Shown here piece after piece: positions 42,264-46,096 of a stretch of 64,000 nt of DNA. Under the pieces are notes generated by a model that saw only the letters and a list, made by a program, of their open reading frames with translations, was not told where the DNA came from and did no database searches. The DNA is from a virus. Each line of letters opens with the position of its first letter. Within the stretch, counting starts at the first letter, position 1. The stretch lies in the IMG/VR virus record IMGVR_UViG_3300024259_002152, positions 286,867-350,866 of that record; one strand, given 5' to 3'. The position numbers and the translations under genes are program-made.

Positions 42264-42337
42264 TCATTAGTAGTTTAACGGGCAAAACACTCCAGCGCTT
42301 ATTGGTAGAGATGATGGTTCGAGTCCATCCTATTGAG
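42264..42337 (+). pseudogene. tRNA-like segment without foldable anticodon arm
   Basis: acceptor (one mismatch), D arm, T arm GATGGTTCGAGTCCATC present; no canonical anticodon stem. Confidence 0.3.
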
Positions 42338-42359
42338 TTACACAGGTTGATTGTAGAAG

Positions 42360-42460
42360 GTTATCGGTCAAAACATTTTTTAAACAAGAATGCACAGTAG
42401 GGTTCAAGTCCTTACACCCCAGTAATGGGTCTTATCTTTTACCACCACATATCTGTGTTT
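42360..42460 (+). ncRNA. tRNA-like repeat element 2
   Basis: GTTATCGG...TAGGGTTCAAGTCCTTA CACCCC-AGTAA-TGGGT...CCACCACATATCTGTGTTTT. Confidence 0.4.
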
Positions 42461-42461
42461 T

Positions 42462-42532
42462 CCCTCGTTGGTGTAATGGAAGCATAGGACATTGTCGATG
42501 TTCAGGCAGCGGATCGTTACCGCTACGAGGGG
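42462..42532 (+). tRNA. tRNA-Asp(GTC)
   Basis: loop TTGTCGA; unusual T-loop ATCGTTA. Confidence 0.55.
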
Positions 42533-42537
42533 TTTAA

Positions 42538-42621
42538 GGGAGTCCGCCAAAGCGGGAGAGTTGGGACAGGTTGTAACCCTGTTGTCGAAAGACTGAGTAG
42601 GTTCGAATCCTATGACTCCCA
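42538..42621 (+). tRNA. tRNA-Tyr(GTA)
   Basis: loop TTGTAAC, long variable arm. Confidence 0.7.
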
Positions 42622-42624
42622 TTT

Positions 42625-42711
42625 GGAAGAGTTGGCAGAGTTGGCATGCCGAGCTGATTGCTAATCAGTCCTGCCTTCGGGGCAGTGCAGGATCGTCCCC
42701 TGTCTCTTCCG
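42625..42711 (+). tRNA. tRNA-Ser(GCT)
   Basis: type II, loop TTGCTAA, T-loop ATCGTCC. Confidence 0.6.
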
Positions 42712-42717
42712 TTCATT

Positions 42718-42811
42718 GGATAGCGTGGTAACTATTGGTAGGTTACACTAGTCTTGAAAACTAGGTTCCCTTTCACAAAAGGGGAATAAGAGTTCGATTC
42801 TCTTCCTATCC
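42718..42811 (+). tRNA. tRNA-Ser(TGA)
   Basis: type II, loop CTTGAAA; C-C mismatch at 7-66. Confidence 0.5.
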
Positions 42812-42818
42812 GTTAAGA

Positions 42819-42942
42819 GATCATATGGTGGAATTGGTATACACCTCTCCTATGCAGGGGAGCTTGATTGCGTTCAAGCGGTTTGATTCCGAAAATAGGT
42901 TGGATTCCTATATTAATACTGGTTCGAGTCCAGTTGTGATCT
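42819..42942 (+). other. 124-nt tRNA-like element closed by an 11-bp terminal helix
   Basis: 5' AAGAGATCATA pairs 3' TGTGATCTCTT; canonical D and T arms; about 50 nt too long. Confidence 0.3.
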
Positions 42943-42950
42943 CTTATTAC

Positions 42951-43023
42951 GGCGGTATAGTATAGTTGGTTAAAACATTCCTTTCATACGGGAAAGTCCC
43001 TGGTTCGATCCCAGGTATCGCTA
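42951..43023 (+). tRNA. tRNA-Met(CAT) (Met/fMet/Ile2 undetermined)
   Basis: loop TTCATAC. Confidence 0.6.
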
Positions 43024-43054
43024 TTGTTAAAAACAAGTATGTAGCACCGAATAA

Positions 43055-43125
43055 GGCCCATTAGTTTAGTGGTAGAACGGTAGGTTTTCAGCCTATTAGC
43101 AGGGGTTCGACTCCCCTATGGGTCA
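43055..43125 (+). tRNA. tRNA-Glu(TTC)
   Basis: loop TTTTCAG. Confidence 0.65.
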
Positions 43126-43131
43126 GTTTTT

Positions 43132-43203
43132 GCTCCTATCGTCTAGTGGTTAGGACATCTGGTTCTCAGCCAGAAAACGTGAGTTCGATCCTCATTAGGA
43201 GTA
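43132..43203 (+). tRNA. tRNA-Glu(CTC)
   Basis: loop TTCTCAG. Confidence 0.55.
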
Positions 43204-43990
43204 TTTTCCCAAGTTTTTTCTCTGGTTTGACCACTCTAACTTTTTACTACTAAAAGGATTAGAGCGGCGAGTAAAAAACCTCATAAAAACTAATAAAAAA
43301 GCAGGAAAAAACTATTGGAAAGTGAAAGAAAAGACGATAGATTATTACTATAGTAACATTGGTTATGATAGTCTTTTACAAGTAAATAGAGAGAGAATTT
43401 ATACGGGTTGAAGTTTTAAAGTTATCGTTAAGGTCAACAAAATGCTTTTTAACATCCCACATCCGTATTTTTAGAACAAGCATGTGGGTTGATTGATGTC
43501 GGTTATCGATTATTCTATTTTTAATGCGTGTAAGAATCGAAAAAGCGAATCAGGTAACAGTCAAGTTGAGATAACGCCAATCGATATATTTGACGGGAAG
43601 ACTGGCTAGTTTTGAGAGAACCAGGTTGAAATATACTAATGGCTATGCACTTGAAATTTCCTAAGACAATGATTTTTAGCTCAATAACAGAGCGTTTCCG
43701 ATTTCTTCCACACATCCACAGGCGTTTTTTTGTCGGGTAGTTTAAGCATAAAATGGCCACCGTAAGGTGGTTGATGGTAGGTGAGATGCCTGCCCCCTGA
43801 CACCATATTGGGTAGTTTAAATGTAAAATGCCTGACAAGGACCATAGGTAACCATTCCGTGGTCAAGTTCAGGAGATGATAGGATCAATGCCTATCCCCG
43901 ATGCCATTGGGTAGCTTATAGGTAAAGCAGTTGTTGAGTTATATCTCGATTTATAGTGTTGAGATAATATGACTTAATAACAGAAAAGGC
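43204..43990 (+). repeat. ORF-free repeat region inside tRNA island (3 x TTGGGTAG(T/C)TTA units; degenerate GTTATCG...CCACATCCG elements)
   Basis: repeat starts 43735, 43809, 43909; GTTATCG at 43421 and 43505. Confidence 0.4.
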
Positions 43991-44013
43991 GGTTCGATTC
44001 CCCTTCCCGATAT

Positions 44014-44102
44014 TGCGGGGTTGAGTAGTCCGGCTTAACTCACGGGTCTCATAAGCCCGTAGATCCTTCAAGATCTCGGAGGTTCAAATCCTCCCCCCGC
44101 TA
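44014..44102 (+). tRNA. atypical type-II tRNA, anticodon CAT by fold
   Basis: 1-72 mismatch, long variable arm AGATC-CTTCAA-GATCT. Confidence 0.35.
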
Positions 44103-44159
44103 TTACGAGTATTTTTATACTCATAAACAATGATGCGGCAACGGTTGCCGTGAAGGGAT

Positions 44160-44629: not shown

Positions 44630-44827
44630 ATGATGCCTACTGGTCGCGTTAAATGGTTCAATAAGAAGAAGGGTTATGGTTTTGTAGACCATGAAGGTAA
44701 TGATATCTTTATTCATCATTCTGAGATAGAAGGCACAAATCTTCTTGAAGATAATGATCTTATCACTTTCGATATTGTCGATGGTGAAAAAGGTCTTAAG
44801 GCAAAAAAAATAACTAAAATGGGTTGA
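44630..44827 (+). CDS. csp: cold-shock protein (CspA family)
   Basis: [15 protein letters not shown]...DIFIHHSEI; AGGAG RBS. Confidence 0.8.
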
Positions 44828-44837
44828 TTTAGAGTAG

Positions 44838-44957
44838 GTTATCGAATTTAACGAAAGGATATGGGTTCGAGTCCCATTGCTCACCTCGGTGAGTATAGCT
44901 CAATTGGCAGAGTTTACATTGTTTATTCTTACTAACACATCCATAAGTTATTTTTTA
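44838..44957 (+). ncRNA. tRNA-like repeat element 3
   Basis: GTTATCGA...ATGGGTTCGAGTCCCAT TGCTCAC-CTCG-GTGAGTA TAGCTCAATTGGCAGAG...CACATCCATAAG...T6. Confidence 0.45.
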
Positions 44958-44958
44958 T

Positions 44959-45031
44959 GGGGGCTTAGCTCAGTCGGGAGAGCGATTGCTTTGCAAGCAA
45001 TAGGTCGCAGGTTCGATTCCTGTAGCCTCCA
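44959..45031 (+). tRNA. tRNA-Ala(TGC)
   Basis: G3-U70 pair, loop TTTGCAA. Confidence 0.75.
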
Positions 45032-45048
45032 CTTTTCATTTCCAGTAT

Positions 45049-45120
45049 GGGCCATTGGTGAAACTGGGATCACACTTGGTTTGCACCCAGGAATTACGGG
45101 TTCGAGTCCCGTATGTGTCC
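45049..45120 (+). pseudogene. tRNA-Ala(TGC)-like pseudo-tRNA
   Basis: good D, anticodon (TTTGCAC) and T arms but acceptor strands GGGCCAT / ATGTGTC cannot pair. Confidence 0.4.
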
Positions 45121-45127
45121 ATTTCTT

Positions 45128-45198
45128 GGGCCTATAGTTCAATGGTAGAACGCACTCCTTATAAGGGTGTCACGCAAGTTCAATTCTTGCTAGGCCTA
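45128..45198 (+). tRNA. tRNA-Ile(TAT)
   Basis: loop CTTATAA. Confidence 0.65.
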
Positions 45199-45222
45199 CT
45201 TAGACAGGTTGAATGTGAAAAA

Positions 45223-45315
45223 GTTATCGTAAGTTCGAATCTTATCTCCCCCTCATTTATGGGGGAGTTGCTCAATGGGAGCGTCTTTTTTTACTATCCC
45301 ACATCTGTCATTTTC
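45223..45315 (+). ncRNA. tRNA-like repeat element 4
   Basis: GTTATCGTAAGTTCGAATCTTAT CTCCCCC-loop-GGGGGAG TTGCTCAATGGGAGCG...TCCCACATCTGTCATTTT. Confidence 0.45.
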
Positions 45316-45387
45316 GCCTTCTTAGTTCAATTGGCAGAATACTAGATTTGTAATCTTGAGATCTCAGTTCGATTCTGAGAGAAGGCT
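45316..45387 (+). tRNA. tRNA-Thr(TGT)
   Basis: loop TTTGTAA; one U-U in anticodon stem. Confidence 0.6.
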
Positions 45388-45391
45388 TCAT

Positions 45392-45463
45392 GGAAAGATG
45401 GTGTAGGTGGTCGCACGCGGCACTGAAAATGCCGAGGTACCAGTTCAACTCTGGTTCTTTCCA
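45392..45463 (+). tRNA. tRNA-Phe(GAA)
   Basis: loop CTGAAAA. Confidence 0.75.
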
Positions 45464-45467
45464 TTTT

Positions 45468-45512
45468 TTCCAGACAACGCATTTCTCGAAATGATTATAT
45501 GTAGCACCGAAT
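45468..45512 (+). promoter_or_regulatory. promoter box + TAGCACCGAAT box
   Basis: TTCCAGACAACGCATTTCTCGAAATGATTATATGTAGCACCGAAT. Confidence 0.5.
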
Positions 45513-45540
45513 AAGTTATTTCTTATAGGAGATTTGTTCA

Positions 45541-45795
45541 ATGTTTTTTGCAATAAAATTAGCTCTTATGTTGGTATGGTTGGGTATGGGAGCATTTGGT
45601 TATCATATCTCTTATGAATACCAAATACATCTTTATAGGAGAAAATGGAGTAATAATCAAAATCTCATTCACCTATTAAGAGTGCTCTTAGGTCCTATTA
45701 ATTGGGTTTGGTGTTATTTGACAAGAAAAGGAGAAATGACTTACTGGGCAGATTATCAAAGATCTTCTGCATATGACCATAGGAAAGAAGAGTAG
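45541..45795 (+). CDS. small membrane protein
   Basis: TM helix; behind promoter box. Confidence 0.35.
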   Translation: MFFAIKLALMLVWLGMGAFGYHISYEYQIHLYRRKWSNNQNLIHLLRVLLGPINWVWCYLTRKGEMTYWADYQRSSAYDHRKEE

Positions 45796-45800
45796 TTTTT

Positions 45801-45874
45801 AGGTCCATAGCTCAGCTAGGTAGAGCATCTGGCTTTTAACCAGAGAGTCGTGGGTTCGATTCCCACTGGACCTA
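45801..45874 (+). tRNA. tRNA-Lys(TTT)
   Basis: loop CTTTTAA. Confidence 0.75.
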
Positions 45875-45881
45875 TTAGAGA

Positions 45882-45957
45882 GGGGATGAAGCTTATTGTG
45901 GTAAAGCACCAGGTTCTTACCCTGGGTTCTTGAGAGTTCGAATCTCTCTATCCCCAT
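45882..45957 (+). tRNA. tRNA-Lys(CTT)
   Basis: loop TTCTTAC. Confidence 0.65.
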
Positions 45958-46096
45958 TCAAGGTGGCAGCATGGTAAAGCTGGAATTGACGACACGGCTG
46001 ACGCGAGGGAACCCCTCGATGCGTGGAGATCGACACCCACTTAGATATATGGCTTACCACTGTGTATTGAAAAAGTCAATTCTTTCCGCCTTTTAT

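Follow-up and report, generated by a model that had tools for sequence, protein, structure and literature searches.

The tRNA island of an uncultured jumbo phage (positions 41039-51150, ~10 kb) probably combines ~12 non-decoding tRNA mimics with a decoding set of ~30 tRNAs that covers all 20 amino acids. Positions refer to the window, the whole 64,000-nucleotide stretch of DNA that was analysed, and the interval studied here (42264-46096) is the core of the island. The 351 kb contig is the longest of the phage carrying the island. The interval was recovered in six independent assemblies at 99.8-100% identity with zero differences within the odd elements, indicating that these elements are not assembly errors. 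Structures were called with ARAGORN, Rfam and minimum free-energy (MFE) folding, with z-scores obtained from shuffled sequences. The comparison set was eleven syntenic arrays from related phages (including L054, L057, L071, L072, L075, L076, L078, L079 and L081), several comparisons comprising just two to three orthologs each.

The decoding set of ~30 tRNAs covers 20 of 20 amino acids, and several members have conserved, lineage-typical structural variants that keep identity elements. The identity rules applied were those of E. coli and Aquifex, from which those of the phage's host may differ. The 3' CCA is encoded in none of the true tRNAs in the window. The variants, and a tRNA-Tyr that completes the set, are located as follows.

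42461-42533, plus strand: tRNA-Asp(GTC), A54/U58 T-loop ATCGTTA (ARAGORN; Rfam 44.8 bits)
42538-42621, plus strand: tRNA-Tyr(GTA), long-arm type with short variable stem, loop UUGUAAC (Rfam tRNA 38 and 30.2 bits)
42624-42712, plus strand: tRNA-Ser(GCT), A54/U58 T-loop ATCGTCC (ARAGORN)
44014-44102, plus strand: initiator-type tRNA(CAU), inserted variable hairpin AGAUC-CUUCAA-GAUCU, U1.U72, A73, A11:U24 (ARAGORN; alignment with E. coli metZ and orthologs)
48948-49021, plus strand: tRNA-Leu(TAG), short variable arm (ARAGORN; L054 ortholog 78% identical)
50988-51061, plus strand: tRNA-Leu(TAA), short variable arm (ARAGORN)
51078-51150, plus strand: tRNA-Leu(CAA), short variable arm (ARAGORN)

An earlier sequence-only reading had ascribed short variable arms and 10-11-nt D loops to all three Leu tRNAs, which was confirmed; they are 73-74 nt long with a 4-5-nt variable region, a 3-bp D stem and A73. 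A pattern scan located short-arm Leu tRNAs in ~30 unrelated viral contigs, and ARAGORN called 82 short and 26 long Leu tRNAs in the scanned viral loci, a biased sample since the loci were chosen by a Leu-like pattern. Short-arm forms are annotated as tRNA-Leu in Gordonia and Rhodococcus phages, and long-arm Leu tRNAs occupy the same slot in L057. Mycobacterial tRNA clusters are reported to include a short-loop Leu(TAG) (PMC6582537), and removal of the variable arm mainly reduces the affinity of Aquifex LeuRS, for which A73 is crucial (PMC2377443). The results support conserved working variants in which the long variable arm was lost while A73 and the Leu-type D arm were retained. The long variable arm, CAT anticodon and 1-72 mismatch reported for 44014-44102 were likewise found (91 nt, 5-bp variable stem, U1.U72, A73). 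This tRNA could be aligned along its length with the E. coli metZ initiator tRNA, and the 1:72 mismatch was present in all sequences of the alignment, which included metZ and five orthologs. The L075 ortholog (9579-9669), likewise 91 nt long, has a long variable arm of other sequence. The alignment supports an initiator tRNA(CAU) in which a variable hairpin was acquired and the 1:72 mismatch, A73 and A11:U24 were retained. The Asp and Ser(GCT) T-loops carry ATCG for TTCG, as first described. U58 accompanied 10 of the 12 A54 T-loops among 811 unrelated phage tRNAs, supporting a conserved working variant in which the U54-A58 pair is swapped to A54-U58. The proposal that the odd units are non-canonical functional tRNAs was therefore upheld for the Leu tRNAs (widespread, A73), the long-arm CAT initiator (L075 ortholog) and the A54 T-loops (covariation with U58). 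These variants would most likely be expressed, aminoacylated by host synthetases and active in translation. The tRNA-Tyr had been overlooked and was not called by ARAGORN; it supplies the last member of the 20-amino-acid set, and relatives carry Tyr(gta) in the matching slot.

The mimic group comprises six Y-like RNAs, three anticodon-less RNAs, a unit with a 6-nt loop, an Ala-like RNA, a 124-nt RNA and possibly a 139-nt element. The mimics are conserved in tRNA shape (acceptor, T and D arms) and not in the anticodon. The Y-like and anticodon-less genes, which make up much of the interval, had also been missed in the sequence-only reading. The anticodon-less RNAs are contiguous.

43732-43805, plus strand: anticodon-less tRNA-like RNA, GUAA-capped 7-bp hairpin for the anticodon arm, 3' ACCA encoded (model R1, 54 bits)
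43807-43906, plus strand: tRNA-like RNA, extended arm for the anticodon arm, 3' GCCA encoded (fold; model R1, 24.5 bits)
43906-44012, plus strand: tRNA-like RNA, 42-nt extended hairpin for the anticodon loop, without encoded CCA (Rfam tRNA 22.7 bits with 42-nt insertion; z = -4.05)

The alignment of this family (A4) revealed compensatory changes in 10 of 14 pairs and an invariant 3' CCA; in the window, two of the three units encode CCA. The family model R1 scored 54-90 bits across the clade and detected unannotated anticodon-less units in the unrelated phages L017, L026 and L002, with the ACCA end in L026 and L002. Orthologs of 43906-44012 were found in L054 (72% identity, Rfam 26.7 bits) and L081.

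On sequence and predicted fold, six RNAs of the interval appear Y-RNA-like (YrlA-type).

42050-42184, plus strand: Y-RNA-like RNA 1 (partial Rfam YrlA match at 42096-42150; MFE fold; orthologs in L071, L072, L075 and L076)
42340-42458, plus strand: Y-RNA-like RNA 2, T arm and acceptor hairpin with degenerate D arm (motif, MFE fold)
43401-43468, plus strand: minimal Y-RNA-like unit, outer stem and conserved module without tRNA-like domain (motif and matching 3' CACAUCCG)
43482-43721, plus strand: large Y-RNA-like unit of ~240 nt with the same closing module (fold, motif, orthologs; first 37 nt 94.6% identical to L057)
44819-44944, plus strand: Y-RNA-like RNA 3, 5' module overlapping the stop codon of a cold-shock-protein gene (Rfam YrlA 25.7 bits)
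45203-45309, plus strand: Y-RNA-like RNA 4, full-length Rfam YrlA architecture (34 bits, model positions 1-114, E 1e-5 to 2e-4; z = -3.4; orthologs)

All Y-like units fall under the Rfam YrlA gathering score (34-44 vs 69 bits). Compensatory changes were found in 14 of 20 pairs in a 16-sequence alignment. RNA 1 has an outer stem and a GUUGA..GUUAUCG module, followed by a permuted T arm, closed acceptor hairpin and D arm, with compensatory pairs among its orthologs. Orthologs of RNA 2 occupy the Val-Asp slot in L071, L075, L076, L078, L079 and L081, and those of the minimal unit were found in L057, L071, L072, L075 and L076. The L054 ortholog of RNA 3 scored 43.8 bits with Rfam YrlA over its full length (E 7e-7) and covariation is present.

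The other odd units, listed below with the canonical tRNA-Ala, bear most directly on the reading as tRNA pseudogenes or debris of recombination, in which duplication and homing-endonuclease traffic produced decaying units with no function; this reading is considered unlikely.

42264-42337, plus strand: non-decoding tRNA-like RNA, 4-bp anticodon stem, 6-nt loop, U4.U69 mismatch (Rfam tRNA 41.7 bits; ARAGORN 'tRNA-???' with 2-nt anticodon)
42819-42942, plus strand: 124-nt tRNA-like RNA without usable anticodon loop (Rfam tRNA 32.6 bits; z = -2.7)
44959-45032, plus strand: canonical tRNA-Ala(TGC), G3.U70, A73 (Rfam 71.6 bits)
45049-45120, plus strand: tRNA-Ala(UGC)-like RNA, internal loop at 3:70 and 4:69, C73 (ARAGORN tRNA-Ala(tgc); Rfam tRNA 43.8 bits)
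45958-46096, plus strand: 139-nt element, 7-bp closing helix (z = -1.88)

The setting is one in which debris could arise: HNH genes lie within the array (41534-42070 and 48075-48659) with a LAGLIDADG gene nearby, slot contents vary among the arrays of relatives, and that of L075 carries an IS605/TnpB insertion. The canonical tRNA-Ala, 17 nt upstream, would make the look-alike redundant, and the T stem and acceptor of the L054 copy of the look-alike (1609-1681) are weaker, as expected of a decaying copy. However, the window and L054 look-alikes are 84% identical (92% across the first 61 nt) compared with 55-78% for true tRNA orthologs. Together with the L071 ortholog (17360-17432), their D, anticodon and T helices show 87-100% pairing and four compensatory pairs, and 3:70 and 4:69 are unpaired in all three phages. 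Since the orthologs show compensatory changes, the look-alike is not a decay product. The three arms were perfect, as had been reported; the acceptor said to be unable to pair does so at five of seven positions (G1-C72, G2.U71, C5-G68, A6-U67 and U7-A66), with mismatches solely at 3:70 (G.G) and 4:69 (C.U). Similarly, 42264-42337 had been described as having no anticodon helix, whereas a 4-bp helix (C-G, C-G, A-U, G.U) closes the loop CGCUUA, although a normal anticodon is impossible. Its ortholog in the same slot of L076 (8662-8742) has a 9-bp stem and a pentaloop and carries compensatory changes, so that decay is again not indicated. The earlier suggestion of pseudogenes from endonuclease-driven shuffling thus failed for these two units. 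The orthologs with covarying helices of the anticodon-less and Y-like units, and the invariant encoded CCA of the former, also argue against debris.

Debris may account for the two remaining elements. The 124-nt unit consists of a terminal helix, D arm, four extra hairpins (two T-arm-like) and T arm, resembling a patchwork of three T-arm-like hairpins, and a homolog was found in no relative. The D and T arms within a terminal helix and the excess length (57- and 12-nt insertions between these arms) agree with the first description, except that the helix is 10 bp rather than 11 bp. The intron suggested for it is unsupported; the ARAGORN call of Ile(gat) with a 32-nt intron has a mispaired stem and is not credible. 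The 139-nt element, previously called structured but unassignable, is weakly structured, with a 7-bp terminal helix and a further 8-bp helix, and 8 of 200 shuffles fold equally well. It has no Rfam match at E<=1 and no homolog in relatives, and occupies the slot that in them holds a second tRNA-Tyr. Both elements, being without homologs, may be either functional or debris.

It is quite unlikely that the non-decoding units are mere processing punctuation, that is, RNase P and RNase Z signals for cutting the island transcript with the excised units roleless. Such tRNA-like punctuation is known from mitochondria and MALAT1/mascRNA. The units, tRNAs and small ORFs follow one another head to tail, 0-20 nt apart, and the acceptor and T-arm features that are kept are exactly those read by the two enzymes. 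Nevertheless, true tRNAs already flank most junctions, making extra cleavage signals unnecessary, and the anticodon-less units form tandem arrays of up to six with nothing between to release. Encoded CCA is not required for cleavage and blocks RNase Z in many bacteria, and the Y-like units end in a closing stem rather than an acceptor stem.

A reading in which all or most odd units decode in unusual ways is improbable. The 6-nt-loop unit would be a frameshifter, AlaRS would charge the Ala look-alike via its helical irregularity at 3:70, and AUG would be read as Leu or Ser by the long-arm CAT tRNA. The UGC anticodon loop of the Ala look-alike is perfect, with U33 and A37, and in the window copy a register shifted by one base gives G1-C72, G2-C71, G3.U70, C4-G69 and A73; E. 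coli reportedly retains alanine acceptance with some 3:70 mispairs (McClain 1988; Gabriel 1996). However, the shifted register is not preserved in the L054 and L071 orthologs. The long-arm CAT tRNA shares A73 with tRNA-Leu, but it aligns with initiator tRNAs including metZ, and MetRS recognises the CAU anticodon. Hexaloop units with covarying stems also occupy a second slot, between Thr and Phe, in L054 and L071, where L081 has a triloop unit. The 6-, 5- and 3-nt loops and tetraloop hairpins at the anticodon position, varied and unconserved in sequence among orthologous and related units, indicate that the loop is not under decoding constraint.

The reading of the oddities as artefacts of hand-folding or indexing, gene-finder false positives or assembly errors, to which the two overstatements on the acceptor and anticodon helices and the ARAGORN intron call lend some weight, is largely refuted by the agreement of ARAGORN, Rfam and free-energy folding on the unusual features, by their identity in independent assemblies and by their presence in orthologs.

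Since selection keeps the tRNA shape without the anticodon, the mimics most likely occupy tRNA-binding proteins. Mimics other than the Y-like RNAs could be decoys or sponges for enzymes or toxins recognising the acceptor/T half or the CCA end. They may have an anti-defence role, drawing off tRNA-targeting nucleases or toxins as decoys; the conservation of shape and not anticodon is compatible with this, as is a nearby gene (27404-28417) for a T4-Pnk-like kinase/3'-phosphatase (polynucleotide kinase/phosphatase). The Y-like RNAs may take part in RNA decay or repair as adapters of Ro60/Rsr. No TROVE/Ro60 ORF was found within the 64-kb window (~18% of the genome); in Actinomadura a TROVE + vWA_Ro60 gene has the same closing module 28 nt upstream.

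The helicase-like gene at 39232-40242 encodes a protein found in identical form on 13 contigs of the JGI, ENA and Logan assemblies, the longest of which is 350,866 bp, indicating that the source is an uncultured jumbo phage. Six of the 13 overlap the window with 99.8-100% identity, and the sole difference among them within 42264-46096 is one base in the canonical tRNA-Ala. The agreement of the overlapping contigs at the odd elements excludes assembly error as the cause of the oddities. The window is low in GC (33%) with every gene on the + strand, and encodes homing endonucleases, DNA methylases, a PARP-like protein and a polynucleotide kinase/3'-phosphatase. 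No relatives were found among deposited phages: megablast with the tRNA island (41039-51150) and tblastn with a 926-aa protein gave no match in the INPHARED phages. In IMG/VR, neither protein-guided scanning (helicase-like and methyltransferase-like proteins) nor an exact-pattern scan for the tRNA-Ala look-alike produced a match, the clade being taken as absent from that collection. A search with a tRNA-Glu(ctc) pattern recovered unrelated arrays only.

Eleven related phages with syntenic arrays were recovered. The arrays of L054 and L057/58 were obtained by protein-guided search with the methyltransferase-like gene inside the island, those of L071, L072, L075, L076 and L078-L081 with homologs of the helicase-like gene, and that of L084 by DNA pattern search. 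The consensus order is Gln Asn Ile [Y] Val [Y] Asp Tyr Ser Ser Met Glu Glu [Y][Y] (anticodon-less units) initiator Pro [cold-shock gene][Y] Ala [Y] Thr Phe Met Lys Lys His Cys ... Gly Gly Leu, where [Y] denotes a Y-RNA-like unit. Both Y-like and anticodon-less units occupy the consensus slots in most of the relatives examined. The elements of the window discussed below are as follows.

42050-42184, +, Y-like unit 1
42264-42337, +, tRNA-like unit with a 6-nt loop
42340-42458, +, Y-like unit 2
42819-42942, +, 124-nt tRNA-like unit
43401-43468, +, minimal Y-like unit
43482-43721, +, large Y-like unit
43732-43805, 43807-43906 and 43906-44012, +, anticodon-less units
44014-44102, +, long-arm CAT tRNA
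44819-44944, +, Y-like unit 3
45049-45120, +, tRNA-Ala look-alike
45203-45309, +, Y-like unit 4
45958-46096, +, 139-nt element

Between 41039 and 51150, 31 tRNA genes were reported by ARAGORN and 26 by Rfam at the curated threshold (RF00005, gathering score 29 bits, the model used for the cloverleaf tests). The array at first appeared to be without tRNA-Tyr, which was located at 42538-42621 (Rfam 30-38 bits, loop UUGUAAC, short variable stem); the relatives have Tyr(gta) in the corresponding slot. With tRNA-Tyr included, the genes in which the anticodon loop is normal and the acceptor stem paired number about 30 and cover all 20 amino acids. An anticodon arm with a 5-bp stem, 7-nt loop and U33 is present in the Ala look-alike and the long-arm CAT tRNA as well as in the Leu, Asp, Ser and Tyr tRNAs, and a continuous 7-bp acceptor stem is present in every tRNA except the Ala look-alike and the 6-nt-loop unit. 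None of the true tRNAs in the window has an encoded CCA, and each is followed by U-rich sequence.

Three tRNA-shaped units are arranged head to tail at 43732-44012, and in each the anticodon loop is replaced by a hairpin that is capped or extended; their tetraloops or extended hairpins depart from the 5-bp stem, 7-nt loop and U33, and the third (43906-44012) scored only 22.7 bits with the Rfam tRNA model, below the 29-bit gathering score. In each phage, two to six such units in tandem separate the large Y-like unit from the initiator tRNA. In an alignment of ten units, compensatory changes were observed at 10 of 14 pairs and the 3' CCA was invariant. A covariance model of the family scored 54-90 bits across the clade and also detected unannotated anticodon-less units in the unrelated phages L017, L026 and L002, those of L026 and L002 terminating in ACCA. 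Automatic searching for CCA-ending tRNA-like units was too permissive outside the island, and only matches with a perfect T stem inside arrays were kept.

The unit at 42264-42337 had been described as having no anticodon helix. A helix is in fact present, 4 bp closing a 6-nt loop, and the description holds in so far as no normal anticodon can be presented. The unit scored 41.7 bits with the Rfam tRNA model and has one U.U mismatch in the acceptor stem. Its homolog in L076 lies in the same slot after tRNA-Val and shares acceptor and D-arm sequence, but its anticodon arm is replaced by a 9-bp stem with a pentaloop. Units of this class also occur between Thr and Phe, a second slot that is occupied by hexaloop units with covarying stems in L054 and L071 and by a triloop unit in L081. 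Conservation of the tRNA frame together with a free loop indicates that this class consists of non-decoding tRNA-like RNAs.

The look-alike at 45049-45120 is called tRNA-Ala(tgc) by ARAGORN and scored 43.8 bits with Rfam, against a gathering score of 29. Its D, anticodon and T arms are perfect, as the sequence-only reading stated; the further claim that the acceptor strands cannot pair was too strong, since five of the seven pairs form and the only mismatches are G3.G70 and C4.U69, with C73 as discriminator. The adjacent canonical tRNA-Ala (44959-45032) has both G3.U70 and A73, the marks of tRNA-Ala, which are replaced in the look-alike by G3.G70 and C73, in its L071 ortholog by G3.A70 and C73, and in its L054 ortholog by G3.G70 at the same position. 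In both relatives the ortholog follows tRNA-Ala. Identity between the copies of the window and L054 is 84% for the whole unit and 92% for its first 61 nt, compared with 55-78% for orthologs of true tRNAs in these two phages. Across the three copies, pairing in the D, anticodon and T helices is 87-100% and four pairs are compensatory, while 3:70 and 4:69 are unpaired in all three with differing bases (G.G/C.U and G.A/U.U). The constant unpaired positions combined with compensatory pairs point to an acceptor-stem internal loop under selection rather than to decay. Two other explanations were considered and rejected. With the acceptor register shifted by one base, G3.U70 and A73 would reappear in the window copy, but this register is not conserved. 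A recently damaged redundant copy, produced by a GT-to-TG swap at 69-70, is contradicted by the L054 and L071 copies, which share the unpaired positions and exceed true tRNAs in conservation. CCA-adding enzymes mark tRNA-like RNAs that have G1G2 and an unstable acceptor stem with CCACCA, and such marking is a testable prediction for the look-alike. The sole tRNA-Ala of L054 (1530-1603) has G3.U70 but an aberrant D arm, and Rfam reported it not as a tRNA but as a tmRNA-like fragment of 21.6 bits.

A permissive Rfam scan of the window returned sub-threshold matches to YrlA, the Y-RNA-like family of bacteria, one of them full length at 45202-45313 (34 bits, E about 1e-5 to 2e-4). Six units in the window were found to have one design, a closing stem, a GUUGA..GUUAUCG module and a 3' CACAUCYG, and the closing stem covaries perfectly (cAG/CUg, cGG/CCg, uGG/CCa). 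In four of the six, the enclosed body consists of a T arm, a closed acceptor hairpin and then a D arm, which is degenerate in unit 2. Among 16 aligned units, compensatory changes occur in 14 of 20 predicted pairs, and both full-length model alignment and minimum free energy folds show the YrlA architecture of closing stem and permuted T arm, acceptor hairpin and D arm. The best scores, 34 bits in the window and 43.8 in L054, remain below the RF02553 gathering score of 69; since the Ro60-adjacent RNA of Actinomadura is likewise unreported at E<=0.01, the model is insensitive for this subgroup. Two weaker matches (43875-43928 and 45094-45151) were rejected as combining the T arm of one unit with the D arm of the next, the 'dimeric tRNA' type of false positive against which Chen et al. 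warned (PMC4201824).

Among about 70 loci compared, the motif is confined to this clade. When 185,579 genomes were scanned, the module (GGUUGA..GUUAUCG) was detected in Actinomadura sp. WMMA1423, where it precedes by 28 nt a gene whose product has TROVE and Ro60-vWA domains; this ties the module to Ro60-associated YrlA RNAs (PMC4201824). The phage units resemble the YrlA and Y RNAs bound by Ro60 (Rsr) in having a closing stem that is formed by the two ends of the RNA and carries a conserved module internally, and in that the body is a permuted tRNA-like domain of T arm, closed acceptor hairpin and D arm. They differ in scoring 34-44 bits against the 69-bit gathering score, in numbering six to eight paralogs per genome across the tRNA array rather than one or two beside rsr, and in that some are without the tRNA-like domain or have a 240-nt body. 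No TROVE/Ro60 gene was found among the scanned ORFs of at least 337 aa in the 64-kb window, the genome being at least 351 kb. YrlA RNAs have been reported in 22 phages (Chen et al. 2014, PMC4201824). The GGUUGA module of unit 3 contains the stop codon of the cold-shock-protein gene (44825-44827), an overlap also present in L054, and the 5' part of unit 1 contains that of an HNH gene (42068-42070). The L084 array (CAZAFQ010000014.1), on an 11-kb contig in a 'Candidatus Saccharibacteria' MAG bin, has 20 tRNAs with five Y-like units of this clade and is probably a mis-binned phage contig.

The 124-nt unit was confirmed to be overlong, with D and T arms within a terminal helix and insertions of 57 and 12 nt between the arms; the helix is 10 bp rather than the 11 bp first counted. 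It scored 32.6 bits with Rfam (gathering 29) and has no assignable anticodon loop. The suggestion of an intron was not borne out. Tested with introns allowed, ARAGORN gave tRNA-Ile(gat) with a 32-nt intron and a mispaired anticodon stem. Introns in bacterial and phage tRNAs belong to group I and measure about 200 nt at least, and the intron reading was rejected. The 139-nt element had been called structured but unassignable: it indeed matches no Rfam family, but its fold is barely better than that of shuffled sequence (z = -1.88). Its slot is occupied by a second tRNA-Tyr in L076, L079 and L080 and by a Tyr-like gene with a huge variable region in L071. Neither the 124-nt unit nor the 139-nt element has a homolog in any relative, and each may be functional or debris.

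To our knowledge, the species 1 and species 2 RNAs of phage T4 (rnaC and rnaD) still have no known function. The 124-nt unit resembles species 1 (139 nt) in having a T arm and terminal helix around long extra hairpins, and the two settings are alike in that stable non-decoding RNAs, the stability being putative in the window, lie in a phage tRNA cluster (at its end in T4) adjoining a homing endonuclease gene. The resemblance is in layout only, without sequence similarity, and the covariance model of the anticodon-less family gave no hit to rnaC or rnaD. Furthermore, T4 has two such RNAs compared with about a dozen of several classes here.

The sequence-only reading was correct on the tRNA at 44014-44102, which was confirmed as a 91-nt tRNA with anticodon CAT, a 5-bp variable stem, a U1.U72 mismatch and A73. 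The best Rfam match was tRNA-Sec with 30.1 bits, a score below that model's threshold of 47. Orthologs lie directly before tRNA-Pro in L054, L071, L072 and L075. A blastn search against E. coli genomes returned only uninformative 20-nt T-arm matches and was replaced by direct alignment, in which the orthologs align end to end with E. coli metZ, an initiator tRNA. Five orthologs have C1.U72, A73 and initiator-type D and T arms. A 1:72 mismatch is a hallmark of bacterial initiators, and that of the long-arm CAT tRNA is not a defect. The features shared with E. coli metZ/W/V tRNA-fMet are the CAU anticodon, 1:72 mismatch, A73, A11:U24, GGG/CCC anticodon stem, GGUUCAAAUCC T arm and overall sequence similarity. 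The phage tRNA differs in its 16-nt variable hairpin, in having U.U rather than C.A as the mismatch, and in the U31.G39 pair that closes the loop and sets the three G-C pairs one pair off it, where bacterial initiators have them directly beside the loop (29-31 with 39-41); L075 has two G-C pairs and a U.G, and L054, L071 and L072 have two. We know of no other initiator tRNA with a 16-nt variable hairpin. The 91-nt form is common to the window and L075, and the difference in sequence between their variable hairpins (AGAUC/GAUCU and GAUA-GAAA-UAUC) indicates that the inserted arm is maintained as a structure. These features predict an initiator, with putative formylation and initiation activity.

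Long-arm tRNAs of 83-92 nt also occur in the relatives as Thr(TGT), Lys(TTT), Asn(GTT) and Cys(GCA), indicating that gain and loss of the variable arm is a general habit of the clade. The loci are L075 10581-10663 and 10859-10943, L054 3493-3576 and L072 4903-4992, with others in L080, L081 and L078; some have a Ser/Leu-type D arm, and the orthologs in other members of the clade are 71-76 nt. Bacterial allo-tRNAs also combine a long variable arm with unexpected anticodons. The same combination is found in the nev-tRNAs of nematodes (PMC3333845). In both, as in the phage tRNAs, the anticodon is foreign to Leu, Ser and Tyr; both are thought to cause or risk miscoding through charging with Leu or Ser, whereas the phage bodies keep features of their own class, such as those of the initiator, so that normal identity is more likely.

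The short variable arms and 10-11-nt D loops reported for the Leu tRNAs at 48948-49021 (TAG), 50988-51061 (TAA) and 51078-51150 (CAA) were found in all three, which are 73-74 nt long with a 3-bp D stem and a variable region of 4-5 nt, rather than the more than 10 nt of a long arm. All three have A73 and a Leu-type D arm with GGCAGAG in the D loop. A pattern built from them recovered short-arm Leu tRNAs in about 30 unrelated IMG/VR contigs, where ARAGORN counted 82 short and 26 long Leu tRNAs, a sample biased by the search pattern. Within the clade, short forms occur in L054, L071, L075, L076 and L081, whereas the Leu tRNAs in the corresponding slot of L057 are 82-86 nt with a long arm and the same GGCAGA D-arm core; thus, the arm was lost or gained within the clade. 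Short-armed genes of this kind are annotated as tRNA-Leu in Gordonia and Rhodococcus phages, and one short-loop tRNA-Leu has been noted in mycobacterial tRNA clusters (PMC6582537). The similarities extend to Leu anticodons, a 73-77-nt body with a short variable region, and carriage in horizontally moving tRNA clusters with HNH endonucleases. The earlier reports are passing mentions, whereas here all three Leu isoacceptors are short and a related phage keeps long-arm versions. For the LeuRS of Aquifex, deletion of the variable arm mainly reduces affinity and A73 is a key determinant (PMC2377443), which makes charging of the short-arm tRNAs with Leu plausible.

The ATCG T-loops of tRNA-Asp (42461-42533) and tRNA-Ser(GCT) (42624-42712) were verified as ATCGTTA and ATCGTCC. 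Among 811 tRNAs of unrelated phage arrays, 793 have U54/A58 and 12 have A54, ten of these with U58. The A54/U58 swap was also seen in Ala, Gly, Ile, Thr and Asp tRNAs of the clade. A54/U58 is an exchange of T-loop pair partners and not degeneration.

Overall, one third of the island genes are conserved RNAs that are tRNA-shaped but non-decoding, some matching the design of Ro60-associated Y RNAs and others with a ready-made CCA end. The rival explanations are processing punctuation, debris and unusual decoding. The conservation of acceptor, T and D features in units whose anticodon loops are free or absent argues for action through tRNA-binding proteins and against decoding. Debris is opposed by the compensatory changes in the Ala look-alike, although the 124-nt unit and 139-nt element may be such. 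If the units act through tRNA-binding proteins, the Y-like units would most likely be adapters for Ro60/Rsr, their binding being putative, and the other mimics would be candidate decoys, directed at enzymes or toxins specific for the acceptor/T half or the CCA end. The polynucleotide kinase/3'-phosphatase fits a phage contending with RNA damage.

Phage tRNA genes are usually viewed as codon-usage helpers or as replacements for tRNAs cleaved by host defences. A broader proposal, rather unlikely as a whole, is that the clade carries an RNA-based counter-defence arsenal of at least a dozen non-decoding tRNA mimics per genome, with its own tRNAs shaped to escape attackers. Six to eight of the mimics would be Ro60-type Y RNAs, and others would form the anticodon-less, CCA-ending family present also in unrelated large phages. 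They would absorb or redirect host proteins that attack or inspect tRNAs, candidates being toxins that modify the CCA end, nucleases that read the acceptor stem, and Ro60-PNPase, and the phage tRNAs would evade the same attackers through gain or loss of variable arms and swapping of T-loop pairs. The neighbourhood of the polynucleotide kinase/3'-phosphatase is an RNA-repair context:

27404-28417, +, T4-Pnk-like polynucleotide kinase/3'-phosphatase (AAA_33 and PNK3P)
28651-29295, +, GNAT acetyltransferase, adjoining the kinase/phosphatase gene

No RNA ligase was recognised by Pfam in the window; Pfam likewise gave no hit for the 354-aa ORF at 18458-19522 or for the small ORFs within the island. 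A literature search returned no description of mimic sets of this kind in phage tRNA arrays. If the mimics are expressed, phages use tRNA mimicry far more extensively than the two stable T4 RNAs, themselves unexplained, would suggest, and the mimics would be defined candidates for tests against tRNA-targeting immune systems. The tRNA-Leu lacking its long arm, the long-arm initiator and the A54/U58 T-loops are natural experiments on the tolerance of synthetases, formyltransferase and the ribosome. Standard tRNA finders both overlook real genes, here tRNA-Tyr, and call mimics tRNAs.

The window also encodes a PARP-like protein with catalytic and regulatory domains (58404-59735) and an ADP-ribosylglycohydrolase (1193-1981). 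In L075 a gene for an IS605-type OrfB/TnpB (Cas12f-like) protein (6735-7886) is inserted in the tRNA array between tRNA-Ser and tRNA-Met. The motif TTCCAGACAAYG occurs at 23 sites in the window compared with 0.5 expected by chance (for example 13742, 39200, 45468, 46249, 50719 and 51236), nearly all on the + strand and intergenic with four at the ends of tRNA blocks, and is likely a phage promoter or other transcription signal. A second motif, AGCACCGAAT, is confined to the tRNA island, with six sites (41344, 43043, 44608, 45503, 49046 and 50755) compared with 0.03 expected, just upstream of tRNAs or small ORFs. Its counterpart in the relatives is TAGCAC(C/T)GAAT, sometimes as a hairpin adjoining a TATAAT-like box, and the motif may serve as a promoter or processing site peculiar to the island. 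Between tRNA-Asn and tRNA-Ile, the spacer (41201-41371) has a very strong predicted fold, -61.8 kcal/mol over 171 nt, consisting of long hairpins with the GCACCGAAT motif in the loops.
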